From Candidatus Omnitrophota bacterium (GTDB taxonomy: Bacteria > Omnitrophota > Gorgyraeia > Duberdicusellales > 4484-171), in NCBI GenBank assembly GCA_021735655.1, contig JAIPGM010000004.1, positions 64,001 through 128,000 of the forward strand: 64,000 bases of DNA. Direction: 5' to 3'. This document shows positions 14,929-44,880 of the stretch, piece by piece (within the stretch, counting starts at the first letter, position 1; the number at the start of each line of letters is the position of its first letter). The position numbers and the translations under genes were made by a program. The notes under the pieces are model-generated. The model was given only the letters and a program-made list of their open reading frames with translations, was not told the DNA's origin and ran no database searches.

Positions 14929-15378
14929 TTATCGGTAAAAGAAAAGAGTTACTACTATGCCGACTATGGCCCCGATAAAAACTTCTATCGGAGTATGACC
15001 AACAAGTTCTCGCAAACGAGATTCTCCAATCTTCTTTCCTTCCTGAAAATCCTCAACCATTCGATTAAGCACTTTTGCCTGGAAGCCTATCGAACGCCGC
15101 CAAGTTTGGGCATCAAACATATTAATCACCGCGAACAAAACACTCATCGCAAAAAGAATAGATCCGGTTCCAGCCTCTTTGGCCACGCAAACAACCAAAG
15201 AAACCACTGCGGCACTATGAGCTGATGGCATGCCGCCAGTACCCATAACCCAAAAAAAGTTAAACTTCTTATCTTTTATGAGCCCGGTAAAAATCTTTAA
15301 AACTTGGGCTACGAAAATTGTGGTTACAATAGCCCAAAAAGCCCTATTTCTATATATTCCTTCCCAAAACCCCTGCAT
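14929..15378 (-). CDS. divergent PAP2 / DUF212 (YuiD-like) membrane protein
   Basis: GGMPSAHSAAVVSL motif and 4 TM segments, typical of pfam02681. Confidence 0.6.
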   Translation of the reverse strand: MQGFWEGIYRNRAFWAIVTTIFVAQVLKIFTGLIKDKKFNFFWVMGTGGMPSAHSAAVVSLVVCVAKEAGTGSILFAMSVLFAVINMFDAQTWRRSIGFQAKVLNRMVEDFQEGKKIGESRLRELVGHTPIEVFIGAIVGIVVTLFFYR

Positions 15379-15588
15379 ATAGGCCTTATTATAAAAAGAA
15401 AAGGTGATTTAAGCAACAACTATTTAGTCCATCTTCAAATTGCAATATCTACCCATGGAAATCTCTTAAAAAATCTAATCTGCTCTGCTTCTAAAGCGCT
15501 CTCTGGGTTAGCCCGAGCTTTAGGGTTTCCTTTTGCTCCATTTATCAAAACATAAAAATCTGTATCAGCGGCTATCGCGGCTCTGGTT

Positions 15589-16491
15589 TTAAATTCCAAA
15601 ATAAATTACTAAAATGCAAACTATACACCAGAGGGCCAAATTAAGCTGCAACTTTAAGTCAGCAAAAAGTATTCGCGTAGGATCTCCGTGTTTAAAGCGT
15701 TGATGAATTATGTAAAGATAACGAAATATACCATAATATACAAACGGCAGGCTGTACATAAGATGATTACTTCCAAATGCATTAATAGTCCTTGTGTCTA
15801 CTGTATAAAGCATATAGATAACTACCATCGAAGACGTCAGCACCGCTATCATTTGATCTATAAAGTATACGCTATATTTAGACAAAACCTTCCGGTGTAA
15901 AACAGCCTTTTTTTGCAAAATTATCAGCTCCTGACGCCTTTTAATAAATCCCAAAAATAATGCCAGCAAAACCGTCATTAATATAATCCAATGTGACATT
16001 TCAATTCCGGTAGCCACGCTGCCGGCTATTATTCGCAAAAGGAAAAACCCACCAACACAAAAAACATCGACAATAACAAAGTTTTTAAGCACCTTTGTAT
16101 AAATTAAATTAAACAACAGATAAATAAGCATAACCAAACCCAAATATCTGTTCAAAACAAAAGCTAGGCCAATAGACAAAAAAGATAAAATAATTGCCGC
16201 TATCAACGCGTTGGCGATGCTTAGCTTACCGGAAGCAATTGGCCGAAATTTCTTTAAGGGATGAACCCGATCATTCCTTACGTCAATTAAATCATTAAAC
16301 AGATAAACCGCACCCGATGTCATTGAAAACAAAACCATAGCGATTACGGCATCAAGATTAGCAGGATAAGAAAAAAGCTTCTTTCCGAAAATTAAAGGCA
16401 AAAGTATAAAAGAATTCTTAATCCATTGCCTTGGTCTTATAGAATATAAAAAGTTTTTCATTAAACTAAAGTTTCCATTACAATTAACCAC
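15589..16491 (-). CDS. UbiA-family prenyltransferase, decaprenyl-phosphate phosphoribosyltransferase (DPPRS)-like
   Basis: NDLIDVRNDRVH (NDxxDxxxD) and RPIASGKLS motifs; 8-9 TM helices. Confidence 0.65.
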   Translation of the reverse strand: MVNCNGNFSLMKNFLYSIRPRQWIKNSFILLPLIFGKKLFSYPANLDAVIAMVLFSMTSGAVYLFNDLIDVRNDRVHPLKKFRPIASGKLSIANALIAAIILSFLSIGLAFVLNRYLGLVMLIYLLFNLIYTKVLKNFVIVDVFCVGGFFLLRIIAGSVATGIEMSHWIILMTVLLALFLGFIKRRQELIILQKKAVLHRKVLSKYSVYFIDQMIAVLTSSMVVIYMLYTVDTRTINAFGSNHLMYSLPFVYYGIFRYLYIIHQRFKHGDPTRILFADLKLQLNLALWCIVCILVIYFGI

Positions 16492-16544
16492 CTATCAGGT
16501 TGACGGAAAAGTACCTGTCCAAGCTATTAACTGTTTCTAAATTA

Positions 16545-17183
16545 TTATTCGGCTTCTTCGATGGAAAATAACTGAAAATGTTGTGGGCAAATAAAAGTAG
16601 TGTCAAAATCAGAAGTTCCTTTATAAAAAACGGCCTTATCTACAAAATTACTTAAATCCCCAACCTGTGAAATATCTAGCCTGGCACACCCTCTTAGCTT
16701 TCGACCATTAAATACTATCGTATTTCCTTTGCTCGCCTTCAGACAATAACAAGCTCCACAAGCCCTGCTGCCAGCCCGGTAGTTACATCTAGTTATAACG
16801 CCTTCACCCTTCTGAATAACTACTTCTGGCTGATCAGACTCTTCTTCTGAATCATCAATGTCTAGTTTGTTTTGAAAAGAACCCTTTTTTAACTCTCGGA
16901 GCTTACCAAAAAGCTCCTGAGTTGCCTTTTTATCTCTAAAGCAATCTTTCGGGCAACTTTCTGCCGTTTCGCAACAAGTAAATCCGCGAGAACCACAGCC
17001 TTTATCTTGACAAAATCCATCACCGCAACGATCAGTACATCTATCTAAAGGCTCATCATTAGCCTTCCCCTCTATGCCCGGCAGACCAGTTTCGATATCT
17101 ACAACTCTACCTTCAGAAAAAACATTCTGAAAGACAAAAAATGAAAATACCATAATTGAAATACTTATAGTTACTGGTTTCAT
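16545..17183 (-). CDS. secreted cysteine-rich hypothetical protein
   Basis: Signal peptide. Dense Cys cluster CTDRCGDGFCQDKGCGSRGFTCCETAESCPKDC. No family recognised. Confidence 0.4.
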   Translation of the reverse strand: MKPVTISISIMVFSFFVFQNVFSEGRVVDIETGLPGIEGKANDEPLDRCTDRCGDGFCQDKGCGSRGFTCCETAESCPKDCFRDKKATQELFGKLRELKKGSFQNKLDIDDSEEESDQPEVVIQKGEGVITRCNYRAGSRACGACYCLKASKGNTIVFNGRKLRGCARLDISQVGDLSNFVDKAVFYKGTSDFDTTFICPQHFQLFSIEEAE

Positions 17184-17193
17184 TTATTTGCCT

Positions 17194-17697: not shown

Positions 17698-17705
17698 AAT
17701 CCCTC

Positions 17706-19530: not shown

Positions 19531-20559
19531 TTAGAATCTTTTAATAAATTCTATTTTTTCAATCACTGTTCCATCATTAGTACTAATTTTAAAATCATCA
19601 AGCGAACCATTGTTAGTAACATTATTTATCCGAAGGCGATAATATATTGGCTCGTCTCTTCTTTTTATCATTCGAAATTTTTCTTGCGGTACTACCCCCC
19701 TATAAAGAGTAACTCCAGTTATCGGACCATTAGCATAAACATGAATTTCCAAATTAATTTCCAACTGAGGGAATCCTTCTTCTTTGAGAAAAAATTCAGG
19801 AGCTTGCGGATAAACGATTAGCTTCGTTTTTCTTCCCTCAAGGTCTATCTCCGCTCTTTTTACATTTTTTATCTTTTTGCTAATCTTCTGCGCGGCTTGA
19901 TACCTAGATACTTTATCTTTTTGATAGTGGAAAAATGAAATTAAATTTATAAATGCTGTCTTCTCTTGATTCTCCGAAAAATAATACTTAGCCAAACATA
20001 AATAAATAATCGGATTTTCTGGTTGAGTCTGGGCTGCTTTAATTAACTCTGATTCCAAGCCCTTAATTAAATAATATTCAAAAAGATAAGAATAAGTATT
20101 CGGATCTTTGGAATATAGTTGGGTTGCCTTAATTAATTCAGATTTAGCCCTTTCATCGCCTTCGATTGTATAAAACCGACCCAACCTTAAGTGATAATCA
20201 AAATTGGTCGGGTTCAACCTTATTGCTTTCTTGTAAAGACTCTCTATTTGGACCTTATCGATAGAAAGCTCATCAGCCAACCCCTCTTCCTTGGCCTCTA
20301 ATAGATAGTCCCCTTTTTTTGCATAATAGTCAGCTTTATCAGGACTTATTTTTATGGCTTTAAATACTGATTTTAAAACCTTGCGGTAATAACTTAAACT
20401 AGCCGCATTTAAATCTGGTTTCTGAAAAGTAGAAAGATTTTCGTAAATGCAATTTGCTCTATAATTAGAACTGATATAAAAAGTGAGGTAGATTAATAAA
20501 AAAATGCTTCCTATAAAAAAAATATATTTTTCTTTCCGATCAAAAACCTTTTCTTTCAT
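19531..20559 (-). CDS. TPR-repeat protein with N-terminal membrane anchor
   Basis: TPR-like repeats (AKKGDYLLEAKEEG..., YKKAIRLNP...). Confidence 0.55.
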   Translation of the reverse strand: MKEKVFDRKEKYIFFIGSIFLLIYLTFYISSNYRANCIYENLSTFQKPDLNAASLSYYRKVLKSVFKAIKISPDKADYYAKKGDYLLEAKEEGLADELSIDKVQIESLYKKAIRLNPTNFDYHLRLGRFYTIEGDERAKSELIKATQLYSKDPNTYSYLFEYYLIKGLESELIKAAQTQPENPIIYLCLAKYYFSENQEKTAFINLISFFHYQKDKVSRYQAAQKISKKIKNVKRAEIDLEGRKTKLIVYPQAPEFFLKEEGFPQLEINLEIHVYANGPITGVTLYRGVVPQEKFRMIKRRDEPIYYRLRINNVTNNGSLDDFKISTNDGTVIEKIEFIKRF

Positions 20560-21882
20560 TTAAGTTCTATTCTTATTAGTCACATGGTGATTAAACTGAG
20601 TATTAACGCACTTATAAATTAAAGCCAAAATTAGCCAAAATAGGAATGTCGTCGCTGGAATATGAAAATTAAACTCAAAAAAGCTATGCAACAAAACCCC
20701 AATGAGACCGCAGGCGCCGCTTAAGGTAATTATCTTTACAAAACTGTCCTGCCTTTGACTAATCTTTTTTAAAATGCTTTTAAAAATCGTAACTATAAAC
20801 CCCAGATAAAAAAAAGCTCCGATAAGTCCGGTTTCAACAACCATCTGGAGATGGTCGTTATGAAGATGGTAAAAAAATTTACTCCATGCGAATTCTTGAT
20901 AGTAGGGAAAAATATATGAAAAATTTCCTAGACCTATACCGAATAAAGGAAAATCTTTTATAATAGCCAAAGAATTAGCCGCTATCTTAAGACGACCCAA
21001 AAATCCCTCTTCAATCATAATAAATCGCGCTTTTATTGGGGCTAAGCCTGGAATTAGAACTAATCCCAAACCGAAAATTAATACCAAGGGAATAATCCAG
21101 CCGCTACTCTTTATTAAAAATTTTCGTTTAGAAAATATCCCCATCAATAACAAGGAAAAAATTAAACTCAGCGATCCGGCTCGCGAAAGAGAAATAAATA
21201 CACTGGCTGAAATCAAAACTGCTAGGAATCCAAAAATAATTTTTTTAGCCTTGTCTCGGTAATACAAAGCATGGCCGACAGCCAAAGGCGCAACCATAAC
21301 CATATAGCCGGCAAAATGGTTACGATTACCGAAAGTGCTAAAAGCACCAGTTATCTCAGCATTAATTATAAAATACTTTTTTATGACCCCATAAAATGAA
21401 AGAATCGCTCCCCAAATGATTATCGTTAAAAACAGACGCTCGAATTGAGAGCGTTTCTTTATAGTATTAAGTGTAACCAAAAATAAAATCAAAAATGATA
21501 ACAGATTTATGCTTTCTGCTTTAGTTGCTGCTCTATAAAAAGATAACGATAAAAATCCCGACTGACTATCAAGCGGCATATAGTTATGCTTAAAAAAATA
21601 GGTTTTTGATGAAATAAATTTTATTGCAGCTTGTGGAAGCGGTAAAATCTGGAAAATAACAATAGCGATAAAAACAACTAAAAGATAGGTCTGCCGCGGA
21701 TAAACAATTTGCAACTGACCAGGAAAACTCCTCGCCAGATATAAAGCTAAAATAACTAGTATAGTTATCTGAACGACAAAAAGAAATGTTCCTTTAACTG
21801 AACCGTAACCGAGGGGAACAAAAACTATAAGAAAAACCAAGATAGCTTCAAATAGCCAATCCGGAATTACTTTTTTTATCAT
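20560..21882 (-). CDS. O-antigen ligase / Wzy_C-domain polysaccharide polymerase-like membrane protein
   Basis: About 12 TM helices; motif FFYHLHNDHLQMVVETGLIGAFFY matches the Wzy_C periplasmic-loop signature. Confidence 0.7.
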   Translation of the reverse strand: MIKKVIPDWLFEAILVFLIVFVPLGYGSVKGTFLFVVQITILVILALYLARSFPGQLQIVYPRQTYLLVVFIAIVIFQILPLPQAAIKFISSKTYFFKHNYMPLDSQSGFLSLSFYRAATKAESINLLSFLILFLVTLNTIKKRSQFERLFLTIIIWGAILSFYGVIKKYFIINAEITGAFSTFGNRNHFAGYMVMVAPLAVGHALYYRDKAKKIIFGFLAVLISASVFISLSRAGSLSLIFSLLLMGIFSKRKFLIKSSGWIIPLVLIFGLGLVLIPGLAPIKARFIMIEEGFLGRLKIAANSLAIIKDFPLFGIGLGNFSYIFPYYQEFAWSKFFYHLHNDHLQMVVETGLIGAFFYLGFIVTIFKSILKKISQRQDSFVKIITLSGACGLIGVLLHSFFEFNFHIPATTFLFWLILALIYKCVNTQFNHHVTNKNRT

Positions 21883-23720
21883 TTTTTAGTTTCCGGGGAG
21901 TAAGAATAATGATAAAAATAGTAACCACCCTTACTTTGCTCAATACCATTCAAAACAGCGCCGATAATTTTTGTTTTATTGCCTAATATTTTCCTAGCTT
22001 CAGCTATATGCTTAAGTGGAGTAACTCCGGCTCGAATCACAAAAACTAACCCATCGCATTTATCCGCTAAAAGAATAGCCTCAGATACACTCAAAACCGG
22101 GGTGGAATCAATAATAACTCTTTTATACTTTTTCTCTACCTCGCGCAATATATCTTTTAAAGTGGCTGAGCCCAAAAGCTCTGTGGGGTTAGGCGTGTAA
22201 TGACCACAACCAATAAAATCAAGATTCGGGACATCAGTTGACACTATTACTTCCTCTAAAGAAGCTACGCCAGCCAGCAGGCTACTTAAGCCAATTTCGG
22301 AAGAAGGACTAAAAGATTTCGCTAAGTGCCCCTTGCGCATATCAGCATCGATAAGTAAAGTTGAGTCGCCGGTTTGTGCAAAAGCTATTGCTAAATTAGC
22401 AGAAGTAAAACTTTTTCCCTCCTGCGGAATAGTACTACCAATGACTATAGTTCGTAGAGGCTTATCCTCCGGAAAAGAAAAAATTAAGGCTGTTCTTAAA
22501 TTCTTAAAGTTTTCAGCAACTATAGAAAAAGGCTGGGTGTGAGACAATAAATTTAGTTTTTCTCGGGTTTGCTCTTCCTTTGCCAAGTTGATTGCTCCAA
22601 GAAAGGGGAGCTTAGCGTAAAATTCTACATCGTCCGATGTCTTCAAGGTAGAATCGGTATATTCTAGAAAAAAACAAAAAGATAAGCTTAGAAAAATGCT
22701 CATCGCTAAAGCTAGAATGATATCCCGCTTCGGCCGAGGCCAAACCGGAGACAAAGGAACATCAGCTTCATCAACTATGCGTATATTAGAAATAGAAAGT
22801 TCTTTAGAAACATCTAATTCCTTAGCCCGCTGCAGAAGGTTTTCATATATCGATTTATTCGAATCTACTCTTCGTTTAAGAATTCTGTACTCAGCCGAAA
22901 TATCTTGAATGGCCATGAATTTTTCAGTCTCACTTTTAATCGTTAAAATAACCGTATTTAGCTCCTCATTCAAAGCAAGTATTTCAGGATGTTTTCCTTT
23001 GTATTTCTTAGATAAGGAAGCCACTTCATTTTCCAAGTCAGATTTTTGTTTTTCGAGGTCACGCAAAATACTTTTATCATACTCTTTCTCCATGTCTGGA
23101 ATATTAACGATCTTATTTTTACGAACAAAATTATTTAACTCTTTGTCCGATTGTTGTATTTTCTTTAATGCTTCTTCAAGCTGTCCTTCCAACCAAGAAA
23201 CACCATATTTGGCAATCCCAGTCCTTCTTTCTATATCCTGATAAATAAATTCCCTAGCCCAAGTGTTAGCGATACTGGTTATTTTTAAACGGTCCCTACC
23301 GGTAACCGTAATGATAACTAAATTGCTCATCCGCTCAGGCTTAACATCAACCCAAGACAAAAGAACTCTAGCCGGATTTCTCTTCCCGCCAATTTCAGGA
23401 TCATTAGCAAGATCCAACTTATCAATAACCCGTTCAGCCAAAGAAAGTGATTTCAACAAACCATACTGGCTATAATAATACTCTCTATCTCTGACTTCGC
23501 CCTGATAAGCATACCCACCCTTTTCAGACATAATCTGCGGGTTTTGCTTTTCAATATGCATTGTCATCTCTGCCCGATATTTTTTAGGTTGAGTGAAATC
23601 ATAAAAAGCAACTAGGCTTACGGTTATCAAGATAAAAGACACAACTAACCATTTACGCTTCAAAAAAATTTCCCAATAATCCTTAATGCCTAACACTTTT
23701 ACTTCTGCGGGTGGTATCAT
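21879..23720 (-). CDS. polysaccharide biosynthesis tyrosine autokinase (Wzc/EpsG type: Wzz domain + CpsD/BY-kinase ATPase)
   Basis: Two TM helices flank a periplasmic coiled-coil domain. Walker A IPQEGKSFTSANLA. Tyr-rich C-terminus GGYYFYHYSYSP. 4-nt overlap with the downstream gene. Confidence 0.85.
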   Translation of the reverse strand: MIPPAEVKVLGIKDYWEIFLKRKWLVVSFILITVSLVAFYDFTQPKKYRAEMTMHIEKQNPQIMSEKGGYAYQGEVRDREYYYSQYGLLKSLSLAERVIDKLDLANDPEIGGKRNPARVLLSWVDVKPERMSNLVIITVTGRDRLKITSIANTWAREFIYQDIERRTGIAKYGVSWLEGQLEEALKKIQQSDKELNNFVRKNKIVNIPDMEKEYDKSILRDLEKQKSDLENEVASLSKKYKGKHPEILALNEELNTVILTIKSETEKFMAIQDISAEYRILKRRVDSNKSIYENLLQRAKELDVSKELSISNIRIVDEADVPLSPVWPRPKRDIILALAMSIFLSLSFCFFLEYTDSTLKTSDDVEFYAKLPFLGAINLAKEEQTREKLNLLSHTQPFSIVAENFKNLRTALIFSFPEDKPLRTIVIGSTIPQEGKSFTSANLAIAFAQTGDSTLLIDADMRKGHLAKSFSPSSEIGLSSLLAGVASLEEVIVSTDVPNLDFIGCGHYTPNPTELLGSATLKDILREVEKKYKRVIIDSTPVLSVSEAILLADKCDGLVFVIRAGVTPLKHIAEARKILGNKTKIIGAVLNGIEQSKGGYYFYHYSYSPETKK

Positions 23721-23721
23721 T

Positions 23722-24954: not shown

Positions 24955-24961
24955 AACCTTA

Positions 24962-25372
24962 TTAATGCCTTTCTCCCTCTCTAATATTCTTGCCTCGAGC
25001 CTTATAACTATTTACAATGCTATTATTAATAAACTCTTTCGCCTTCTCATCAATATTGACAAATTCGGTTGCAAGATCATATCCACCCATTTTCTTCAAA
25101 GCCCTGCTTCTTAAAACTTTAGCCACGACTTTAATTGAATCAACCCGTGGCGGAAAATTTATCTCTATTTCTACTATGTTGTTAACCGGAATATTTTCCT
25201 TGGCATGGAAGAGAACCCCGCCAGCACTTATATCTCTGGCAAAAGACAACTTTGACTGGCCATCAATGCTTTTATATTTCAATAAACAGTGCACTCGAAT
25301 CCTAGCAAAATTTCTATTTCTCTTCTTAAAAAATTTACTGGCCAATCTTGAAAAAAACAGCGACTTCATCAC
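24962..25372 (-). CDS. PilZ-domain c-di-GMP binding protein
   Basis: RNRNFARIRV (RxxxR) and DISAGGV (DxSxGG) motifs with the right spacing. Confidence 0.7.
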   Translation of the reverse strand: MMKSLFFSRLASKFFKKRNRNFARIRVHCLLKYKSIDGQSKLSFARDISAGGVLFHAKENIPVNNIVEIEINFPPRVDSIKVVAKVLRSRALKKMGGYDLATEFVNIDEKAKEFINNSIVNSYKARGKNIREGERH

Positions 25373-27133: not shown

Positions 27134-27155
27134 TAAGTCTTAGTGTAGCAAAATA

Positions 27156-27572: not shown

Positions 27573-27637
27573 TAAGTTACCTCCTTGACAATGGTCCTAA
27601 CTAATGTTATACTTAAATTGAAGGAGAAAAGGACAAT

Positions 27638-27862: not shown

Positions 27863-27892
27863 AGATACTACTCATTAAATTATTTTTATAGC

Positions 27893-32147: not shown

Positions 32148-32209
32148 CTGAAATCACCTTGCCGGCATTTTACTTGTTTTCGATTAATCTCTCTACGAAA
32201 AAATTACCC

Positions 32210-33343: not shown

Positions 33344-33366
33344 TAAATTAACTGTCCCGTTTATTT

Positions 33367-35588: not shown

Positions 35589-35639
35589 TTTTTAATCTTT
35601 AATCCTTACCCGTCCCCGATATTATAACTGCGCCTCTAA

Positions 35640-36908
35640 TTAATCCCTTAAACAAGAAACAAGAAATGAAGTAATCCGTCCATAAGTATCTTGGAAAGAA
35701 AACTTTTCTTCAATCTGTTTGCGGGCAAAAAGACTTTGTTTTTTGGCTTGTTCGGCCGAAGCTAAAAATTTGTTTACTGCTTCAGCTATCCCTTGATCAT
35801 TATTCTGAATAATTAGGCCCCGCTCATTATCTAAATTCATTCCATAAATTGCCTCATCAGTAGCTATAACCGGAACCCCCAAAGCCATGGCCTCGATAAC
35901 CCGGCTCCTAAAACCATAAGTTCCTTTTAAAGGACAGATCATAACCGTAGCTGAGGCTAGCGTCTCCTGAACTCGCTCAATAAATCCCGTTATCTTCACC
36001 CGGCTATCCCCGGCTAAAGCCTGCAGTTTATTTGAAGGCCTTGCCCCCACTAGCCATAGTTCGGCATCAGGAACCTTAGGCCAAACCAAGGGCATAATTC
36101 TATTGGCGCAACGTAAGGCAGCTTGCTCATTCTGCTCACCGGAAAGCGAACCATAAAAAATAATTCGTTGCGGTTTAGCCGGTTTCCAACAATATGGCCA
36201 CTCCGCCAAATCAACTCCCATGCCGGCAATTAGCGTAGAAATATTCTGAGGTATTTTTTGGCGAAGATACTCATCTTCAACATGGTTTATCGATATGATC
36301 TGGCTAAATTGTCGCCAGATTTTCTCTTCTATTGTACGATATCGTTTAATCAAAAATTTTTGGTAAAGCCTGCCCGGCCCCTTTCTACTCTTTCCGGCAT
36401 TATTAAAACTTCCTATCGCATCTATCTGAGCGGCCCGCCATTGCCAAAGAATATCATGCATATCCAAAACACAAGGGATACCCTTATTTTTAAAATAGCT
36501 TAATGATGCTGCGCTGTACCAATATTCGAAAAGAACAATAGCGAACTCATCGTTGTCAAGAGCCTTCTTCACTCTTTTCGGCGATAGATTAAGACTGCCT
36601 AGATAATAACTTTTTGGAATACCAAAAAGATAGCAGGCTAAACCAGATAAGGTACGATGTAGCGCCCGGGTAATGAAGTTTTTTGTGTAACAACTAGGCA
36701 AAATTATTACCCGTGAACATAGCGATTGTAAAACTTTTTTATCGGTAAGAATATCTCGTTGGTTACTAGTAGAAAGAAAAGTTATTTCAAATTTTTCCCG
36801 CGCAGCCCGCAAAATGTTAAAAATCCGCACTCGGCAACCCATTTCTAAAAGAGATAGGTTGGCGATTGGCGAAATCACTAAAAGTTTTGGCCGGCCGGTT
36901 TTTTTCAT
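35640..36908 (-). CDS. glycosyltransferase family 4
   Basis: GFRSRVIEAMALGVPVIATDEAIYG. Confidence 0.75.
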   Translation of the reverse strand: MKKTGRPKLLVISPIANLSLLEMGCRVRIFNILRAAREKFEITFLSTSNQRDILTDKKVLQSLCSRVIILPSCYTKNFITRALHRTLSGLACYLFGIPKSYYLGSLNLSPKRVKKALDNDEFAIVLFEYWYSAASLSYFKNKGIPCVLDMHDILWQWRAAQIDAIGSFNNAGKSRKGPGRLYQKFLIKRYRTIEEKIWRQFSQIISINHVEDEYLRQKIPQNISTLIAGMGVDLAEWPYCWKPAKPQRIIFYGSLSGEQNEQAALRCANRIMPLVWPKVPDAELWLVGARPSNKLQALAGDSRVKITGFIERVQETLASATVMICPLKGTYGFRSRVIEAMALGVPVIATDEAIYGMNLDNERGLIIQNNDQGIAEAVNKFLASAEQAKKQSLFARKQIEEKFSFQDTYGRITSFLVSCLRD

Positions 36909-37750
36909 TTTAGCTTTTTTAATTTTCGTCTAATTAAAGAAAATATCTTAAAAGGATTCCTAAAATAATAACTGATTCGCCGCACTTTAAATTTCCGAAA
37001 AAGGATATATTTAATCATTGTTAATACTCTTAAAGGGAAAGAAAGCTTTTGCCGGTGCCTTTCTAAAAGCTGATTATAATAAATATCATGCAACCCTTTT
37101 TCTTTAAGGGTTGTGGTTTTGGCCCCTTTAATTAACCGCAAATTCCCCCAAATCTCATCAATATACTTAACCTTGGCAACCAGCACCGCCCTAATAATAA
37201 AATCTATATCCATCATGTACGGGCCATAAGGCTCATCGGTCAAATACAGCCCTATTTTTTGGTGCAGCGATTTATGATAGAAGTATGCCGAAGGGTTCCA
37301 AGGAAAAGGCTCTTTTAAAGACAATAGGTCAGTTATCCCCATTTTTTTCGGTTTATTTATCTGTAAAATTTTACCTTCATCCCCCCAAACATTGCAATTA
37401 CCCACCAATAAACTAGGCTCGGGCAAATCTTTAAAAAGTTCTAATATCTGATTTAAAACACCGGGCTCATAAAAATCATCTACATTCAAAGAGCTGATTA
37501 TTTCCCCTTTAGACATGGCCAAACCCTTATTCAAAGCCTGCGACTGCCCTTGGTCTTTTTCGGAAACCCACCTAATATGCCGATAGCGCTTGGCATATTT
37601 ACTGATAATTGCTACGGTCTTATCGGTTGATCCGCCATCAATAAGCAGATGCTCTGCTTCCGGGCATTTCTGTTCGATCACATTTTCTAAACAGCCCTGG
37701 ATAAACCGCTCACCATTATAAACTGGGGTAATGACGCTAATCATAGTCAA
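36905..37750 (-). CDS. glycosyltransferase family 2
   Basis: ISVITPVYNGERFI...LLIDGGSTD...NVDDFY (DxD). Confidence 0.8.
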   Translation of the reverse strand: MTMISVITPVYNGERFIQGCLENVIEQKCPEAEHLLIDGGSTDKTVAIISKYAKRYRHIRWVSEKDQGQSQALNKGLAMSKGEIISSLNVDDFYEPGVLNQILELFKDLPEPSLLVGNCNVWGDEGKILQINKPKKMGITDLLSLKEPFPWNPSAYFYHKSLHQKIGLYLTDEPYGPYMMDIDFIIRAVLVAKVKYIDEIWGNLRLIKGAKTTTLKEKGLHDIYYNQLLERHRQKLSFPLRVLTMIKYILFRKFKVRRISYYFRNPFKIFSLIRRKLKKLK

Positions 37751-39024
37751 AAATTCTTTTCCGGTTTTCCTATTATTTCTTGATATAGATTTATGTAGTG
37801 TGCTACCTGATTCTTAAGGGCGTATTTCTTCTCTACTCTTTCCCTAGCGTGATGTCCGAGCCTTTGACGCTCCTGAGGGTGATTTATCAGCCAAGCTATT
37901 TTTGCGGCTAGCTCTTGGCTATTTTTTACCTCAGCCCAAAGCCCAGTTTCGTTTGGTACCATTATTTCGTTAATCCCCCCAATATTAAAGGCTACCGCTG
38001 GAATGCCGCAAGCCATTGATTCTAACAACAATAGACCAAAAGCCTCCTCTAAAGAGGGGATCACTACTACATCAGCGGCACTATAAACATTGGCTAGACT
38101 TTCTTCATCATAAAAATACCCCAATTGATAAATAGCTAAATCACTTCTTCTTAATTTATCCTCTATATCTTGTTTGGCGCCAAAAATAACTAAGGCTAGT
38201 TTGGAGGTATTAATTTTCTGCCCTAATATACTTAAAGCCTCCACTAAATATTGGAAGCCTTTGTTTTTACTCTTGTAATCTGCTCCGAATAAAATAATAG
38301 TTTTATCTTGAGGCAGCCCCAATAAATTCCTCGATTTAAACCGATCCTTCTTAATAAATACATTAATAGGGACTCCGTGGGGAATAACTTTTATCGGGCA
38401 GTCTTTAAAAAGTTGGCTTTGCCTAGCTTGTTCGGCAAGCCAAAAGCTGGGAGCAACAATATTAATATTGGCCTTCTCTAAAACCTTTTTCTTTCTTTCC
38501 AATATTTTCCGGGAAAGGTCTCTGTTTTTCCTTGAACCCAGCTGAGGACAATATCCACAACCAATCTCATATTTGTTACACCCCTCAAGACAATGGCACC
38601 CGCCGGTAAAAGGATTGTGATCGTGCAGCGTCCAAACTATCGGTTTAGGCCCTAAATTTAGAAAAAAATCTTTATAGTCGACCATTTTTACTACCCAATG
38701 CAAGTTAATAACCTCTGCCTCACGCACCACTGGCTGCCTTTTTAGCCGATAGATTGACCGCTCATTACTAAAGATTAATTCCTCTTTTTGCTTTCGCTGT
38801 TGGCCCTTAATCTCTCTAAAAATCAGTTTTTTCTTGATTTTGTTTTTAAACCGAGTAACTAAACTATCGCTTTCAGTTAGTTCAACAACATCACAATCCT
38901 GCGATGAGCGGCGCAAAACTAACATTTTAGAATCTACCTTTGCCTGTTTTAAACCACAATGAATTCTATAGGCTGCTTTGCCGGCCCCGCCAGAATCATA
39001 AGTACTTAAATGAAGAGTTTTCAT
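37747..39024 (-). CDS. glycosyltransferase family 4 with N-terminal extension
   Basis: EEAFGLLLLESMACGIPAVAFNIGG. Confidence 0.75.
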   Translation of the reverse strand: MKTLHLSTYDSGGAGKAAYRIHCGLKQAKVDSKMLVLRRSSQDCDVVELTESDSLVTRFKNKIKKKLIFREIKGQQRKQKEELIFSNERSIYRLKRQPVVREAEVINLHWVVKMVDYKDFFLNLGPKPIVWTLHDHNPFTGGCHCLEGCNKYEIGCGYCPQLGSRKNRDLSRKILERKKKVLEKANINIVAPSFWLAEQARQSQLFKDCPIKVIPHGVPINVFIKKDRFKSRNLLGLPQDKTIILFGADYKSKNKGFQYLVEALSILGQKINTSKLALVIFGAKQDIEDKLRRSDLAIYQLGYFYDEESLANVYSAADVVVIPSLEEAFGLLLLESMACGIPAVAFNIGGINEIMVPNETGLWAEVKNSQELAAKIAWLINHPQERQRLGHHARERVEKKYALKNQVAHYINLYQEIIGKPEKNF

Positions 39025-40112
39025 ATCAGTTGTTTTTTGATTGTTCGCCTTATTGCCCTTTTTAGTCTATTAATAAACCCCCATAATTTAAAAAACTTTT
39101 TTCCTAGCCAATACCTTGGCGAACCCAAAAGGTGCTCAATATCATCAACCTTTCGCCTCTCTACTTGGATTATTCCTTCATTTACATCTTTTATCATTTT
39201 TTTAATTTCTGGCGGATGTTGGCCGGAAAATCGTTCCAGCCAAGCCGGATAGTTATAAACATTATGCACTCGATAGCCGCTTTCTAAACCCAAAAATATT
39301 TTTTGGTACCACTCTTGGAATCCTTTAAGTTGCGCCCATTTAGCTTGGTCGTAATACCGGCTTTTATCCAAGACTTGTTTGGGGAAAACTAGCGAATAAT
39401 GGTACAAAAAAATACCTTTCTTAATTAAGCTGTCTCCGTTGACCCATTTCAAGTTACGTAAATCCACACCTTCTGGATTGCAAACCGTTGGCGGCCGATG
39501 GTCAATATATCTATAGCCCGGCCCCCATTTAAATAAGCGATGATACCTTTGGGCCCAATATTTAGCAGGCTTTTCACGAAACAACCATCCATCAACCACA
39601 TAATCAAATCCACCAAAAAAAGTTATCTGTTTAAAAGAAACAGCGGTGATCTTCGAATCGCTGCGCAGCATTTCTAATATCGCCTGCATGTCTTGGGGTT
39701 TATAAAACTCATCTACATCAACCTGCCAAAGATAATTTCCCGTTGCCCGTTGCGCATAGGCTTGCGACATTTCCTCTTTTTCGCTCCAAAATCCTTTAGC
39801 TGTAATGATCTCGATTTTGTTATCGGGGTCTTCCTCCTGTTTAAACCGCTGGAGTACATCAAGTGTCCCATCAACTGAATGTCCGTTAGCTGTGGCTAGA
39901 TCTGCTGCCGCGCGAACCGCGCCCTCTACCACAATGATTTGATGAGCGAAAGGATATAAAGACCGTAAACAGTAGCGTGTAAACGGCTCTCCGTTAAACA
40001 CGATCAGGCCAAAAGTGATTTTCGGATAATTACTCATTTTTCGCCAAGGTAACCGCAGCAAAAGTAATACCGAAAGGTGTCCAAAGCATGAATAACTGCC
40101 AGGGAGTAACAA
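39021..40112 (-). CDS. putative GT2-like glycosyltransferase
   Basis: ITFGLIVFNGEPF N-terminal Rossmann-like start and VDVDEF DxD-like motif. Divergent. Confidence 0.4.
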   Translation of the reverse strand: MLLPGSYSCFGHLSVLLLLRLPWRKMSNYPKITFGLIVFNGEPFTRYCLRSLYPFAHQIIVVEGAVRAAADLATANGHSVDGTLDVLQRFKQEEDPDNKIEIITAKGFWSEKEEMSQAYAQRATGNYLWQVDVDEFYKPQDMQAILEMLRSDSKITAVSFKQITFFGGFDYVVDGWLFREKPAKYWAQRYHRLFKWGPGYRYIDHRPPTVCNPEGVDLRNLKWVNGDSLIKKGIFLYHYSLVFPKQVLDKSRYYDQAKWAQLKGFQEWYQKIFLGLESGYRVHNVYNYPAWLERFSGQHPPEIKKMIKDVNEGIIQVERRKVDDIEHLLGSPRYWLGKKFFKLWGFINRLKRAIRRTIKKQLI

Positions 40113-41469
40113 AAAATGTAGAAGAGGTAATACTTACCAAAGACAAAGCAACCACACAAGCTATTCCGCTGAAAGCTAAGGTTTGACAACCAGCATCGCT
40201 AGAATGCAAAGCCCGAAGATAGGCCTTTGTGAACCGGACAAAAATCCAAATAAAACCAATAAATCCGATGATCCCAAAAGAAAGCCATAAATATAAATAG
40301 GTGTTATGGGCAAACCAAGTATAGACATAGCCATATTTTTGGAATCCCTCCAGGCCCACACCAAAAAAAGGATGCTCCAAAGCTACCAAAGCCGACTCTT
40401 GCCACCGCCAAATGCGGTCAGCTAATCCGGGTGCTTGGCTGGGGTCGTTCAAAACTTCTAAGACGCGCTGTTGAGCCCGCGCCCCCAAAGAAAACTTAGC
40501 GTAATACCAAAAACCAAAAAATAAGGCAAATGCCGGTAAGCCTATCTTCCATAAAGTTCCGGCAAAGCTTGCCGGAGAGTGTTTCTTTACTTTCAAAGCC
40601 AATACAGCCAACACCACTGTAGAAATTCCGGTTGCAATTAACGCCATTCTTCCCTGGGACTTGATAATTATTAAAGCCGCTACCAACATAATTCCGGCAG
40701 CCGCTAGGCGCTTCCCAAAAGACCGGTCGTTTAACCAGAGATTGAATGCTAATATCGCTACAAAAGCATAGCTAATCGGGGTGACTTCAGCCCCCATAAA
40801 TAAAGAGTCACACAAAGGTAGATTAATTATCTTCATCAAGCGCTCGCTGCCGATAACTGAGGCGCTCATAAGTTCCTGCTCATAACTAGCTAGCTGCGGC
40901 GCATAAAGAAAAACTAAACCCAGCAATCCAGCTGAAATTAAAAAACACCAAAGCAGGCGCTCGGCTTGTTTAATATTTCTAATTAACCAAAAACATAAAA
41001 AACAAAACAACGGCGGCAGAAAGCACACCGTTCGAATCACGATAAGCGAATATTCGCCTTTGTACTCAGCTGATATGTAAGCGAGTAAAGCACCGATAAC
41101 AAATAGCGTAAAAGGTAAAAAAGGAAAACCGCCTCGGGTAGGGATAGATGGGACCTTCTTAGAAACACTGCCAAGAAGCAGTCCGAGAATAATTAGCCCC
41201 CAGATAACTAGTTCAGTTGGATAGACCCGGGTCAATGCCGGAGAGAAACTCTGTAACCTTGAGTCCAAAGGCAGCCAATAGACAAAGACCGCCACGCACA
41301 AAAAGGGAAACAAGCCGATCCTTTTAATCAAATAAAGACTACCGGCCAAGCCGCCAAGCCCCAAAATCAAATATAAAAACCTTAGATTTTGAGAAACAAT
41401 TGCCTGGCTGATTATGACTGCGGCACCTACCAAAGCAAAAAAGAATATTAGTTTTTTTATTCTCGCCAT
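40030..41469 (-). CDS. Wzy/O-antigen-ligase-family membrane protein (second copy in window)
   Basis: At least 11 TM helices. WFAHNTYLYLWLSFGIIG Wzy_C-type motif. The listed start overlaps the upstream gene by 83 nt, so the real start is probably later. Confidence 0.65.
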   Translation of the reverse strand: MARIKKLIFFFALVGAAVIISQAIVSQNLRFLYLILGLGGLAGSLYLIKRIGLFPFLCVAVFVYWLPLDSRLQSFSPALTRVYPTELVIWGLIILGLLLGSVSKKVPSIPTRGGFPFLPFTLFVIGALLAYISAEYKGEYSLIVIRTVCFLPPLFCFLCFWLIRNIKQAERLLWCFLISAGLLGLVFLYAPQLASYEQELMSASVIGSERLMKIINLPLCDSLFMGAEVTPISYAFVAILAFNLWLNDRSFGKRLAAAGIMLVAALIIIKSQGRMALIATGISTVVLAVLALKVKKHSPASFAGTLWKIGLPAFALFFGFWYYAKFSLGARAQQRVLEVLNDPSQAPGLADRIWRWQESALVALEHPFFGVGLEGFQKYGYVYTWFAHNTYLYLWLSFGIIGFIGFIWIFVRFTKAYLRALHSSDAGCQTLAFSGIACVVALSLVSITSSTFFVTPWQLFMLWTPFGITFAAVTLAKNE

Positions 41470-41485
41470 CTCTTAAGCCGCCCTT

Positions 41486-43300
41486 TCAATAAAACTTTTG
41501 CTCTTCCCAATATTGGTAAAACTTACCTTTCTTCTTAAGGAGCTCGGTTAAATCCCCCTCCTCTATGAATCGACCATCCTCGATTACCACGATCTTATCG
41601 GCATTCTTTATCGTAGAAAGCCTATGAGCAATAGTTATCGCAGTTTTCCCTTTAACCATCTGCTCAACCGCCTCCTGTATAAGCCGTTCGGTATGTGTGT
41701 CAAGAGAGCTGGTAGCTTCGTCTAAAATTAAAATCTCAGACCTTCTAAGCACTGCTCGCGCGATAGAAACTCTCTGCTTTTCCCCGCCTGAAAGCTGGAC
41801 CCCCCTATCTCCTACCAAGCTATCCAAGCCCTTCGATGCTTTCAAAATAACTTCGTGCAATCTTGCCTTTTTGGCAACAACCATTATTTCTTCTTCCGAG
41901 CATTCTCTATCTAAGCCATAGGTAATGTTATTTCTAAGGGTATCATTAAAAAGTGCTGAGTCTTGACTTACCAGGGCTATTTGCCCTCTCAACGATTCCA
42001 CTGTAAACTCTCTTATATCGGTGCCGTCGATAAAAATTGTTGAAGGTGGGCAATCGTAAAAACGTAAAATCAAACTGATAAGCGTGGTTTTCCCGGCTCC
42101 GGTCGAACCAACTATCGCAGTCATTTTTCCCTTTTCGACCGAAAAACTAACATCTTTTAATGTTTGTATTCCTTTTTTATAAAAAAAGTTTAGATGCCTA
42201 AAATCTATGCTTTCGTTTAATTGTTTAAACTCTTTTCGGCCGCCGTTTACAAAAAATTTATTTTTATCGTCAAAAACCTTTAATATGCTCCTCATCGGGC
42301 CTTCTATATTAGCTAAAGAAACTCTAAACAAACCTAGCCCTTTTGAGTAGGTAAAAATCCTCTTGATAATAACGATGTACACCGCAAAGATTGCTACATC
42401 CCCTGACTGTTTTTTTACGATCAAAAAGGCGGTGGCAGCGATAAATAATAAGAGCATTACTAAGGCAATAATTTCATGAACCAAAGGCACTAAATAACGC
42501 TTTCTATCAACATTAAATTCCAGCTCTTCTATGGCATCGCTGGCCTTACTGAAACGATGTTCCTCCTTCTTCTCTGCAACACAGGCTTTAACTAAAAGCA
42601 TATTAGATAATATATTGAAAATACTTTGGCCCAAAACCGTATGGGCACCGGCCCAAACAACTGAACTTTTTTTGATCTTATCAATAAGCCATTGCGAAGA
42701 ATAAAATACCAGGGGAAAAACAAGCATTGCGAAAATTGTCAACTTCCAAGAAATCATCACCATTATAATAATGTATACAACAAGCATAAGTATCAAAATG
42801 CATGAATTTTCTAAAATCATGAGCTGACTCGAAATTTTGTTGGTAAAACCGATGAGCACCTGGTTAAGACTCCCTGTGCTGTTAAGGTCGAAATGCTTTT
42901 TCCCAAAACCAAGGTAGCGCTTGAAGATATTTTTTCTTAATTGATTGGAAAACTTCCTTACCTGACGAGCTATGCCAACGGCGGATAGATATTGAAAAAT
43001 GTTTTTTGCGACTGCTGTCGTCGCAATCATGACCAAAAGCAAGATAAATAATGAAGTATTTGTTGCGCTAAGCGAATCTGGAATTTGTTCAATAATATTT
43101 TTTAGAATGGGGACTTCTCTGACAAAGATAAAATCTGCTTTAATGATTCCCCTTACCGTGGGGATTAAAAGCGTTATACTAAGACCCTCAAACAGCGCTG
43201 CCCCTAAAGCTAAAACTACCGGAAAAATAAAATGCGACAACTTTACATCTATTCTGTGAAAGAATTTTATTAACCGTACAAGATTCAAATACAGTTTCAT
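41486..43300 (-). CDS. ABC exporter, fused permease-ATPase (MsbA/PglK-like lipid or lipid-linked-oligosaccharide flippase family)
   Basis: 6 TM helices plus NBD; Walker A GSTGAGKTT, signature LSGGEKQRVSIARA, Walker B ILILDEATS. Confidence 0.85.
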   Translation of the reverse strand: MKLYLNLVRLIKFFHRIDVKLSHFIFPVVLALGAALFEGLSITLLIPTVRGIIKADFIFVREVPILKNIIEQIPDSLSATNTSLFILLLVMIATTAVAKNIFQYLSAVGIARQVRKFSNQLRKNIFKRYLGFGKKHFDLNSTGSLNQVLIGFTNKISSQLMILENSCILILMLVVYIIIMVMISWKLTIFAMLVFPLVFYSSQWLIDKIKKSSVVWAGAHTVLGQSIFNILSNMLLVKACVAEKKEEHRFSKASDAIEELEFNVDRKRYLVPLVHEIIALVMLLLFIAATAFLIVKKQSGDVAIFAVYIVIIKRIFTYSKGLGLFRVSLANIEGPMRSILKVFDDKNKFFVNGGRKEFKQLNESIDFRHLNFFYKKGIQTLKDVSFSVEKGKMTAIVGSTGAGKTTLISLILRFYDCPPSTIFIDGTDIREFTVESLRGQIALVSQDSALFNDTLRNNITYGLDRECSEEEIMVVAKKARLHEVILKASKGLDSLVGDRGVQLSGGEKQRVSIARAVLRRSEILILDEATSSLDTHTERLIQEAVEQMVKGKTAITIAHRLSTIKNADKIVVIEDGRFIEEGDLTELLKKKGKFYQYWEEQKFY

Positions 43301-43327
43301 TTCCTTAGCTCCTTAAATTTCTACATC

Positions 43328-43567
43328 CTAAATGCGTGTGATTTTACCTTCCTGCTCGCTAGTTTTATTTATTTTGTTTGCTATCCAGGAATCAAGTAAA
43401 TCTTTTTTAAAGCGCCATTGCCCACCAAGCTTGAAACCCGGTAGCTGACCTTTCTTTGTAAGACGATAAACCGTGATTGGATGTAACCCTAAATATTTAG
43501 CCGCCTCTTTAGGGTTCATAATTCCCGAATACTCGAACTGCTTTTGTTTTGGGTTTTTAGGTTTCAT
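43328..43567 (-). CDS. excisionase-family (HTH_17/MerR-like) DNA-binding protein
   Basis: AAKYLGLHPITVYRLTKKGQLPGFKLGGQWRFKKDLLDSWI. It is the first gene of the minus-strand operon and has a GGAGG SD. Confidence 0.6.
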   Translation of the reverse strand: MKPKNPKQKQFEYSGIMNPKEAAKYLGLHPITVYRLTKKGQLPGFKLGGQWRFKKDLLDSWIANKINKTSEQEGKITRI

Positions 43568-43752
43568 TTTCCTCCAACATTATACAAATAGCACATTTTT
43601 GCAAAGAAGTCAACGAATGATGACTTTTTTTATTAAAGATTAATAATAATCATCATTTGCTAGCTATTGCTAATAATTGCTAAAAGAACTAAAAAAATAC
43701 CCAAGGAGCATAGCTATTTGGCTAAAACTACTAGAAATTAAATTTCGGGGGG

Positions 43753-44880
43753 TTATTGGCTATTGCCTAGACTCGCCTTAAGTATCTTGAAAAGAATCGC
43801 GGTCAACTCTCCTGAACTTTTAGGATTTCGTAACAGCTCCCAAACTAGGGTTGCGTGGCGCTCAAAATCGCCTTCGCGCTCAATGGTGGTAATATTTTTT
43901 TTAGCGAAGGAAAATATTCGCTTAACATCTTGATCGCTTAGCTTTTGAAATATCTTTCGAGCTCTCAAGGGTATTTTTAATTCTCGGCCAAATCTCTGCA
44001 TCCAAAGCGAAGGATAGCTAGAATACCTCTTCTCAATAATACACTCGGCTAATGTTTCAGCACCACGCATACCCATATAAATTCCGCCATAAGTTAGTGG
44101 CTTAGTTTGAGAAGCGCTATCACCGACCAAAAATACTTTCTCCCGAGATATATCCTTATGCTGAGTTAATGGCACAGCTCCAGCAAATTTTTCAATAACC
44201 TCCCCGTTCATTTTTTGCCTTTTAATGAAAGTCAATAAATCTTGATAAGGGTTTTTAGAGATAACCCCGACTCGGGCCACCCGCTCTGACTCTGGAATTA
44301 CCCAATAAAAATAAGGCCGCTCTATATATACTTCTACTAAATCCTTTCTCTGGGATTTATGTGCCATGCGAAACTGGACCCCCTTCAAGGTGCTCCCCTT
44401 ATAATTATTAGTAACAAACCCTTTGGTTGCAGAGTTAGCTCCGTCAGCACCAACAACAATATCTGCCAAAATCTCTCCCTTGTCGGTTTCGATAATATAG
44501 CTGCCGTTTTCTTTTTCCAGACCAAGGAATTTAGTTTCAAAAAGTATATTAAGACCTTTGCTTAAGTTTTTATCGAAAGTTTCTCGGTCAACCACATAAG
44601 CGACTTTCTTCTTTTTAAGCACAAACTTGTCTTTCCCCAAACGAATAACTGCTCCATTTATCGTATTTGAAACGCAGCCCCGAGCAATCGACACCTTGGC
44701 TTCGCTAAAAACCTTTCCACCGACCAGCCCGGCGCAATGCACTGGTCGGCCTATTTCCTTATGATCTTCTATAAGTAAAGGGTTTAGCCCCGATCCCTTA
44801 AGAAGCTGTGCCAAATAACAACCTACTGGGCCCGCTCCTATAATAACTATTTTTTTTTGTTTCTTGGTTTCTCTCTTCAT
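43753..44880 (-). CDS. FAD-dependent oxidoreductase, geranylgeranyl reductase family
   Basis: KKIVIIGAGPVGCYLA dinucleotide-binding motif, RPVHCAGLVGG, overall GGR-like length and profile. Confidence 0.6.
   Translation of the reverse strand: MKRETKKQKKIVIIGAGPVGCYLAQLLKGSGLNPLLIEDHKEIGRPVHCAGLVGGKVFSEAKVSIARGCVSNTINGAVIRLGKDKFVLKKKKVAYVVDRETFDKNLSKGLNILFETKFLGLEKENGSYIIETDKGEILADIVVGADGANSATKGFVTNNYKGSTLKGVQFRMAHKSQRKDLVEVYIERPYFYWVIPESERVARVGVISKNPYQDLLTFIKRQKMNGEVIEKFAGAVPLTQHKDISREKVFLVGDSASQTKPLTYGGIYMGMRGAETLAECIIEKRYSSYPSLWMQRFGRELKIPLRARKIFQKLSDQDVKRIFSFAKKNITTIEREGDFERHATLVWELLRNPKSSGELTAILFKILKASLGNSQ

Follow-up and report, generated by a model that had tools for sequence, protein, structure and literature searches.

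A flavoenzyme of the geranylgeranyl reductase (GGR) family, encoded in a 64,000-nucleotide stretch of a Candidatus Omnitrophota bacterium (assembly GCA_021735655.1, contig JAIPGM010000004.1, positions 64,001 to 128,000; hereafter the window), is a conserved component of the exopolysaccharide (EPS) or surface-glycan assembly locus of the Omnitrophota. The family, fold, motifs and conserved synteny of this reductase are described below. We propose that it hydrogenates the polyprenyl-phosphate carrier of the polysaccharide pathway, or the primer of that carrier, a reading to which we give about an even chance and in which we infer what is reduced, at which position or positions, and with which electron donor. 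The initial annotation of the window had grouped the reductase with a UbiA prenyltransferase resembling decaprenyl-phosphate phosphoribosyltransferase (DPPRS; motifs NDxxDxxxD and RPIASG) and a protein of the divergent PAP2 family DUF212 as a polyprenyl-carrier toolkit, and hidden Markov model (HMM) searches and motifs place all three proteins in the families that it named.

EPS-locus genes lie within 5 kb of the reductase ortholog in 36 of 38 species-level Omnitrophota loci, at 41-73% identity. Of the two exceptions, one has less than 1 kb of flank on both sides, and in the other the upstream flank is only about 0.6 kb long. An export or regulatory core was found within 6 kb of the reductase in 28 of 32 loci; as for the phosphoglycosyl transferase, 14 of 26 loci have it no more than 3 kb away. 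The background is low, in that few of the GGR loci outside the Omnitrophota, or of 58 UbiA loci from metagenomes, carry such EPS markers. Two complete Omnitrophota genomes hold the ortholog inside the same kind of glycan locus. In CP070807, the genes for Bac_transf (9388-10008), GGR (10001-11104) and HAMP-GGDEF (11101-12405) overlap at their stop and start codons and are followed by TPR, PilZ, BBP2_2, Poly_export, Wzc and Wzy_C genes. The ortholog of the first of the two Bac_transf genes in Table 1 stands directly before GGR in many Omnitrophota, and the regulatory and export module of the window, from HAMP-GGDEF to TPR, also follows GGR in other members of the phylum. The local gene order takes at least five forms (Bac_transf>GGR>GGDEF, TPR>GGR, Wzy_C>GGR>GT4, BBP2>GGR and DUF192>GGR>ABC); because the locus is constant while the immediate neighbor varies, this pattern argues for functional coupling and not for a frozen gene order. 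Such phylum-wide integration of the reductase into glycan loci appears to be unreported in the literature searched, where queries on GGR with Omnitrophota and on GGR with Atribacter returned nothing, a query on EPS clusters gave no mention of GGR, and a GGR-family gene was not found as a standing component of EPS loci.

A comparable setting was observed in a second phylum. The Atribacterota homolog is followed by an NTP-sugar transferase in seven loci or a phosphohexomutase in four, and a polyprenyl-phosphate sugar-phosphate transferase of the WecA/MraY type (PF00953) lies within four genes of it in five loci. PF00953 is not homologous to Bac_transf, and both families use the same lipid. Because two unrelated initiating enzymes that use the carrier adjoin the same subfamily in two phyla, the substrate of the reductase would be the carrier lipid itself, which we regard as the strongest argument for our proposal. 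A large PD40/peptidase protein is also often near the Atribacterota members (loci L044-L082), as is the PF00953 transferase.

The gene neighborhoods also bear on the alternative that the enzyme reduces another isoprenoid, such as the menaquinone side chain in the manner of MenJ, a carotenoid or isoprenoid ether lipids, with its place in EPS loci reflecting only co-regulation or history. Enzymes of the GGR family have a broad substrate range, with branches that act on quinones, chlorophyll and sterols (PMC10821996; PMC12004948), and the archaeal members of the subfamily lie outside glycan contexts, both of which would fit this alternative. However, the synteny with glycan loci has been kept through the rearrangements listed above and has a counterpart in Atribacterota, where the transferase that uses the carrier is a non-homologous one. 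Furthermore, a quinone, carotenoid or ether-lipid gene adjoins the reductase in none of the loci, and the UbiA of the window is of the DPPRS type, not of the MenA or DGGGPS type. We consider reduction of another isoprenoid unlikely.

By sequence and structural model, the 375-aa protein is an FAD enzyme of the GGR family that belongs to a distinct short subfamily. Its Pfam matches are FAD_binding_3 and Lycopene_cycl, and among NCBIfam models it scores best with TIGR02032 (IPR050407), "geranylgeranyl reductase family" (158.3 bits; cut-off 158.8), with which members of the subfamily score from 130 to 168 bits, some of them over the cut-off. Among solved structures, sequence comparison ranks first 3OZ2, the digeranylgeranylglycerophospholipid reductase of Thermoplasma acidophilum (TaGGR; E 1.4e-21, residues 11-337), which is also the only strong match of this kind; three others are limited to the Rossmann segment. 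An AlphaFold2 model built with an alignment of 37 orthologs has a mean pLDDT of 89.2, and when it was compared with the PDB by Foldseek, ranks 1-7 were all archaeal GGRs (3OZ2, 4OPx and 3ATQ), with a clear gap in E-value for 3OZ2. The predicted fold is thus of the two-domain PHBH type and nearest to the solved GGRs.

The motifs of the family are present as well. The FAD-binding GxGxxG (G15-x-G17-x-x-G20) is invariant. The catalytic cysteine motif PxxC(G/A)G, here P46-V-H-C49-A-G51, aligns with PVRCGEG of 3OZ2, and Cys49 is invariant in all 77 subfamily members, in TaGGR and in a GGR-family protein of Halobellus. The aromatic motif F191-Y-W193-V-I-P196 aligns with Y-I-W-V-F-P of 3OZ2 (YxWxFP type), and the flavin motif LVGDSAS (G253-D254) with LVGDAAR. 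The invariant set as a whole comprises GxGxxG, H48-C49-x-G51, R99/F102/D103, F191-x-W193-x-x-P196-E197, G253-D254 and K260-P261-L262. The GGR hallmarks are unchanged in the 37 Omnitrophota orthologs, and those residues of the catalytic core that TaGGR also has do not vary among the 36 Omnitrophota, 15 Atribacterota, 5 Aerophobetes-type and 21 archaeal members compared. Four further residues, E197, R203, K260 and H342, are invariant in the subfamily and do not occur in TaGGR.

Models for more narrowly defined enzymes gave scores below their cut-offs. For the chlorophyll-type reductases ChlP/BchP, TIGR02023 gave 70.1 bits against a cut-off of 343.3 and TIGR02028 gave 36.3 against 505.3; for the equivalogs of archaeal lipid reductases, NF041160 gave 68.3 against 780 and NF041080 gave 47.3 against 580, cut-offs that the archaeal members of the subfamily likewise do not reach. 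The equivalog for Escherichia coli CbrA (NF008519 / PRK11445) gave 47.3 against 303 bits. By these scores, the reductase is neither a ChlP/BchP protein nor a canonical archaeal lipid reductase.

We also weighed whether the enzyme has the fold of a GGR and acts on a non-isoprenoid substrate, as an FAD-dependent oxidoreductase, hydroxylase or halogenase of a sugar, an acyl substituent or a signaling molecule linked to GGDEF and PilZ proteins. A TIGR02032 score marginally under the cut-off, the many PHBH-fold monooxygenases that follow closely in the Foldseek list, the four invariant residues peculiar to the subfamily, and the HAMP-GGDEF gene that directly adjoins the reductase in many loci would all be consistent with such an activity. 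It is harder to reconcile with the invariance of the GGR-specific motifs (the cysteine of PxxCxG, F/Y-x-W-x-x-P and R..FD), with GGRs as the top seven structural matches, 3OZ2 being set apart by E-value, or with monooxygenase sequence matches that do not extend beyond the Rossmann segment. A non-isoprenoid substrate therefore seems to us fairly unlikely.

Relatives of the reductase were sought in one genome per species, which yielded 387 relatives with the motifs of the subfamily. Among the best 80 of these 387, identities are 41-73% for Omnitrophota, 42-44% for Aerophobetes, 35-43% for Atribacterota, and 35-39% for Methanofastidiosa, Theionarchaea and other Euryarchaeota. In neighbor-joining trees rooted on TaGGR, which are small and have thin outgroup sampling without MenJ, HVO_1799 or ChlP sequences, the whole short subfamily was recovered in 100 of 100 bootstraps and the Omnitrophota were monophyletic in 92 of 100, with the archaeal branches basal to the bacterial ones. 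CbrA was sister to the subfamily in 76 of 100 bootstraps of these thinly sampled trees. A plasmid collection used as an outgroup source matched only one GGR-family protein, from Halobellus, and gave no BchP match at E 1e-3. An archaeal origin of the short subfamily fits this distance tree, thin as its outgroup sampling is. The initial annotation had set an archaeal type of GGR against a chlorophyll or menaquinone type, and the archaeal-like assignment is borne out over the chlorophyll type by the ChlP/BchP score (70 against 343 bits) and by the presence of Methanofastidiosa and Theionarchaea archaea among the nearest relatives outside the Omnitrophota. The genomic context of the archaeal members was considered as a clue to function and dropped, as the neighbors are uninformative.

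In the mechanism that we consider most likely, reduced FAD would deliver a hydride together with proton transfer, as in other GGRs, through the conserved Cys49 motif, and the polyprenyl-phosphate carrier, or a short-chain primer of it, would be hydrogenated at one or more of its isoprene C=C bonds. The glycan would in that case be built on a lipid that is partly saturated. The DPPRS-type UbiA would be another enzyme of the carrier lipid in these glycan systems of relatives, where it would supply a polyprenyl-phosphate-pentose donor for GT-C transferases, and DUF212 is probably unrelated housekeeping. A "dolichol-like", that is alpha-saturated, carrier is not established by the precedents, in that archaeal GGRs are credited with saturation of the omega-terminal and internal units of dolichyl phosphate (PMC5088576; PMC10821996), and CbrA acts on the alpha unit.

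Several observations weigh against hydrogenation of the carrier. The reductase falls 0.5 bit under the curated cut-off of TIGR02032. CbrA is only about 21-23% identical to it (BLASTP 23%, E 3e-5), and E. coli cbrA lies between yidR and dgoT, outside a glycan locus. The archaeal members of the subfamily occupy uninformative housekeeping contexts (ZnuA, ApgM, FttA, TruA, KaiC and an AAA protein). In the window itself, a regulator gene and a likely promoter split the reductase from the glycan operon. Saturation of the alpha unit next to a PglC-like enzyme would be unusual, because PglC, PglJ and PglB of Campylobacter reportedly prefer alpha-unsaturated polyprenols. Finally, the substrate is one that we infer, because GGR homologs can adopt others: the GGR homolog Bsr is a sterol C-24 reductase, which makes other isoprenoid substrates possible (PMC12004948).

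The initial annotation had linked the reductase to a bacterial oligosaccharyltransferase resembling STT3. This enzyme is genuine (PF02516, E 2e-37, 129.8 bits; WWDYG at residue 526) and is encoded outside the part of the window, 14929-44880, to which that annotation referred. Nine hydrophobic segments are predicted from hydropathy before WWDYG, some of them long enough for two spans. Its gene is separated from that of the reductase by 40 kb and is flanked by two type-IV-pilin-like genes (211-669 and 3328-3777), in an operon (211-12497) whose upstream genes encode PilC, two PilB ATPases and MshEN, together with GAF-GGDEF and three more pilin-like open reading frames (ORFs). This arrangement resembles that in archaea and suggests a bacterial STT3 that N-glycosylates pilins; support from sequons is absent, as the two flanking pilins have 0 and 1 NxS/T and the minor pilin-like ORFs have 2-4.

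On one reading, the reductase would provide the STT3 enzyme with a dolichol-like carrier of its own, for N-glycosylation in the archaeal or eukaryotic style. The window does contain an STT3 with WWDYG, a lipid-linked oligosaccharide could be assembled by the PglC-like, GT4/GT2 and PglK-like ABC proteins of the glycan locus, archaea are among the relatives of the reductase subfamily, and a shared carrier pool would serve both pathways. However, an STT3 homolog was found within 10 kb of the reductase in none of 82 loci, and we rejected synteny of the two genes on this count. Because STT3 sits in a pilus operon here and is never within 10 kb of the reductase elsewhere, the pairing of reductase and oligosaccharyltransferase is unsupported, although the two may draw on one carrier pool. 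The companions of the reductase are instead Wzc, Wzy_C and outer-membrane export genes, a set typical of a secreted polysaccharide and not of protein glycosylation. A carrier dedicated to STT3 is, in our judgment, very unlikely.

The UbiA protein scores above the cut-off of NF008977, "decaprenyl-phosphate phosphoribosyltransferase" (265.7 bits; cut-off 234), its NDxxDxxxD motif reads N66-D-L-I-D-V-R-N-D74, and it also carries RPIASG. We place its likely start at Met11, about position 16461, which fits the 290-aa product annotated by NCBI. Orthologs of at least 57% identity are widespread in Omnitrophota, and their contexts were compared in six Omnitrophota contigs and locus L011, alongside the 58 metagenome loci. 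A PMT_2-type GT-C glycosyltransferase gene adjoins the ortholog in four contigs (L142-L145), and several orthologs lie in glycan loci beside a gene of the SDR epimerase type and genes for B12-radical-SAM enzymes. In L011 and L145, UbiA and the reductase share one co-directional operon, which in L145 runs UbiA>SDR>PMT_2>GFO/IDH>hexapeptide transferase>Bac_transf>GGR>GGDEF. UbiA is repeatedly flanked by B12-binding radical-SAM enzymes (L142, L143, L144, L145 and L083), of which a single locus can have as many as four. The UbiA of the window has none of the usual SDR and GT-C partners, and only DUF212 adjoins it.

Mycobacterial DPPRS belongs to a pathway that provides a polyprenyl-phosphate-pentose donor for GT-C enzymes. 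Like that enzyme (UbiA, Rv3806c, of the decaprenyl-phosphate-ribose/arabinose pathway), the UbiA of the window has NDxxDxxxD and passes NF008977. The SDR and PMT_2 GT-C genes beside its orthologs resemble DprE2 and the GT-C arabinosyltransferases; unlike in the mycobacterial pathway, a DprE1-like oxidase was not seen. By this analogy, the glycan-locus contexts fit a role of UbiA in making a polyprenyl-phosphate-pentose donor for periplasmic GT-C enzymes. The adjacent DUF212 could mimic the phosphatase Rv3807c, but the adjacency is not conserved: DUF212 stands beside UbiA in 0 of the 58 metagenome loci and in none of the six Omnitrophota contigs, and we rejected a DPPRS-phosphatase pair of the Rv3806c/Rv3807c kind.

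The DUF212 protein itself matches PF02681 (E 5e-42, 143.4 bits; gathering cut-off 26.5) and has three hydrophobic segments. The NCBIfam search gave no model for it, and no function for DUF212 was found in the literature searched. An order of DUF212, LysM-YkuD (L,D-transpeptidase), AccA and PadR is kept in four Omnitrophota genomes (the window, L148, L149 and L150), with varying upstream neighbors. Because none of the other UbiA loci compared has a DUF212 neighbor and DUF212 heads this conserved block, the adjacency of the two genes is lineage-specific and probably goes back to the insertion of a segment comprising orf271, orf167, orf212 and UbiA between Cupin_3 and DUF212. DUF212 is possibly a carrier-lipid phosphatase, and the sharing of an operon by a divergent-PAP2 protein and a peptidoglycan cross-linking enzyme hints at such a role in the cell wall. 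Pilus or GGDEF genes follow the DUF212-YkuD-AccA-PadR block. Of the polyprenyl-carrier toolkit, a tie to glycan assembly is supported for the reductase, by its EPS locus in 36 of 38 species and by PF00953 in Atribacterota, and for UbiA by the glycan loci of relatives; it is not supported for DUF212, whose conserved partners are YkuD, AccA and PadR.

All substantial ORFs of the window are on the minus strand (Table 1), and its glycan locus spans 24 kb (19531-43300). The reductase had been placed at the head of the glycan operon region. It does head the gene array, yet a 452-bp gap with an HTH_17 gene separates it from the ABC exporter, which is a candidate flippase or exporter of a lipid-linked glycan. 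On its other side, little space separates the reductase gene from those for DUF192 and the sulfotransferase upstream. Adjacency of DUF192 and GGR was seen only in the window, L003 and L004, which indicates that it is lineage-specific. An AT-rich region with a TTGACT...TATAAT-like sequence precedes the HTH_17 gene, and the two may be the promoter and the regulator of the glycan operon; a scan for promoters and terminators around GGR gave counts at or below the shuffle expectation, and nothing is claimed from it.

Table 1. Coordinates of the features of the 64,000-nucleotide window
Feature	Coordinates	Strand	Evidence or remark
Mobile/defense-looking island	49000-64000		Vsr endonuclease, Dcm-type C5 methylase, RadC, YhcG PDDEXK nuclease
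MFS/spermidine-synthase-like module fused to M28 peptidase domain (804 aa)	46452-48866	-	Upstream of sulfotransferase
Sulfotransferase	45372..46250	-	PF13469 and PF00685; first gene of tightly packed sulfotransferase-DUF192-GGR unit
DUF192 protein with N-terminal hydrophobic segment	44919..45359	-	PF02643, E 3e-34; 39 bp upstream of reductase
GGR-family FAD reductase (375 aa, soluble)	43753..44880	-	Family models, structure match, motifs, synteny
Small HTH_17 (excisionase/MerR-like) DNA-binding protein (79 aa)	43328..43567	-	PF12728, E 1e-16; between GGR and ABC exporter
ABC exporter (HepA/MsbA/PglK-like)	41486..43300	-	NF045513 HepA_fam, 462 bits, below cut-off of 725
Wzy_C membrane protein	40030-41469	-	In glycan assembly block 31029..41469
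Two GT2 glycosyltransferases	39021-40112, 36905-37750	-	In block 31029..41469
Six GT4 glycosyltransferases	within 31029..41469	-	
Small polyprenyl-phosphate glycosylphosphotransferase (Bac_transf, PglC-like catalytic domain)	30337..30978	-	PF02397, E 6e-62; TIGR03025, 259 bits
Second, divergent Bac_transf protein	29641..30321	-	PF02397, E 4e-24
HAMP-GGDEF	27893-29359	-	Start of regulatory/export module 19531..29359
Four-transmembrane orf138	27156-27572	-	Regulatory/export module
TPR protein	25373-27133	-	Regulatory/export module
PilZ protein	24962-25372	-	Regulatory/export module
BBP2_2 outer-membrane barrel	23722-24954	-	Regulatory/export module
Wzc-like PCP/tyrosine kinase	21879-23720	-	Regulatory/export module
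Second Wzy_C	20560-21882	-	Regulatory/export module
Second TPR protein	19531-20559	-	Regulatory/export module
Cupin_3 gene, then three ORFs without family match	ORFs 16545-18521	-	Between glycan locus and UbiA
DPPRS-type UbiA	15589..16491	-	NF008977; 3 kb past end of EPS locus
DUF212 (divergent PAP2) membrane protein	14929..15378	-	PF02681
LysM-YkuD, AccA, PadR	block 12598-15378 with DUF212	-	
STT3-family oligosaccharyltransferase	657..3203	-	PF02516, WWDYG; inside type IV pilus operon

Other features of the window were recorded alongside. The polysaccharide may be sulfated, as a sulfotransferase gene heads the unit whose last gene is the reductase. The BBP2_2 gene directly abuts the Wzc-like gene (21879-24954), and the Poly_export (Wza-type) gene that lies between these two in CP070807 and CP070684 (L001 and L002) is missing. 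An identity of the locus as a PEP-CTERM/XrtA EPS locus was rejected, as the scores in bits fell under the cut-offs of TIGR03018 (144 against 231), TIGR03007 (91 against 279), TIGR03016 (29 against 91), TIGR03097 (36 against 188) and TIGR02917 (69 against 312), and the ORFs scanned yielded no exosortase domain. The three ORFs between Cupin_3 and DUF212 that lack a Pfam or NCBIfam match are apparently lineage-specific insertions; they encode a 212-aa protein that is rich in cysteine and, as read from its sequence, hydrophobic near the N-terminus, a 167-aa protein with a high content of charged residues, and a 271-aa protein in which one hydrophobic segment is apparent. The mobile/defense-looking island also encodes a protein with an NrS-1-type primase-polymerase domain (787 aa) and contains several ORFs without a family match.

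In its broadest form, our proposal would be that partly saturated polyprenyl-phosphate carriers, archaeal or eukaryotic in type, routinely serve for surface glycans in Omnitrophota and, independently, in Atribacterota, that they are made by an archaeal-derived GGR subfamily that became a core glycan-locus gene, and that together with the STT3 of the pilus operon this amounts to archaeal-style carrier and N-glycosylation chemistry. We regard this extension as tentative and somewhat doubtful. Bacterial carrier lipids are generally described as fully unsaturated, with saturation of the dolichol type being an archaeal and eukaryotic trait (PMC5088576), and this textbook view would be contradicted if the extension were true. 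The only bacterial exception that we located is E. coli CbrA, an accessory stress or resistance enzyme (PMC8469651); a literature search for saturated mycobacterial polyprenyl phosphates found nothing. A reductase fixed in glycan loci across a phylum would point to carrier saturation as a normal design feature of the pathway in these lineages. It would also offer a candidate gene for the question of which enzymes saturate polyprenols outside eukaryotes, and it would bear on how carrier-lipid structure has co-evolved with phosphoglycosyl transferases, flippases and oligosaccharyltransferases.

Among known systems, CbrA offers the closest bacterial comparison for the reductase. This homolog of the GGRs is reported to saturate the alpha-isoprene unit in C55-P as well as in lipids I and II, with resistance to colicin M as the result (review PMC8469651). 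CbrA (YidS, b3690; colicin M resistance flavoprotein; 354 aa) is likewise a short bacterial FAD protein of the GGR family, and a profile-profile comparison with hhalign aligned the two over 270 columns (probability 97.4%, E 1.3e-11). Where the subfamily has GDSA, CbrA has GEAAG. By sequence comparison, the reductase is a distant homolog of CbrA and not its ortholog. The archaeal GGRs (T. acidophilum Ta0516/3OZ2, Sulfolobus acidocaldarius 3ATQ and the GGR of Haloferax volcanii that saturates dolichyl phosphate) share with the reductase the FAD fold, the conserved cysteine and the aromatic motifs. The reductase is shorter (375 aa, against 397 for 3OZ2 and 452 for 3ATQ/4OPx), is 24-29% identical to TaGGR and, unlike the archaeal enzymes, is encoded in a bacterial EPS locus. 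ChlP/BchP and MenJ belong to the same superfamily; HMM scores set the reductase apart from ChlP/BchP, and unlike in the setting of these enzymes, no photosynthesis or quinone genes lie near it.

The locus was compared in turn with Wzx/Wzy-dependent and ABC-dependent loci for EPS or capsular polysaccharide that have Wzc, with HepA/HepC of the cyanobacterial heterocyst polysaccharide, and with PEP-CTERM/XrtA loci. Like those loci, that of the window has a phosphoglycosyl transferase, GT4 and GT2 glycosyltransferases, Wzy_C, a Wzc-like BY-kinase, TPR proteins and a HepA-like ABC exporter, and an outer-membrane barrel of the EpsL/BBP2_2 type is likewise common to both.

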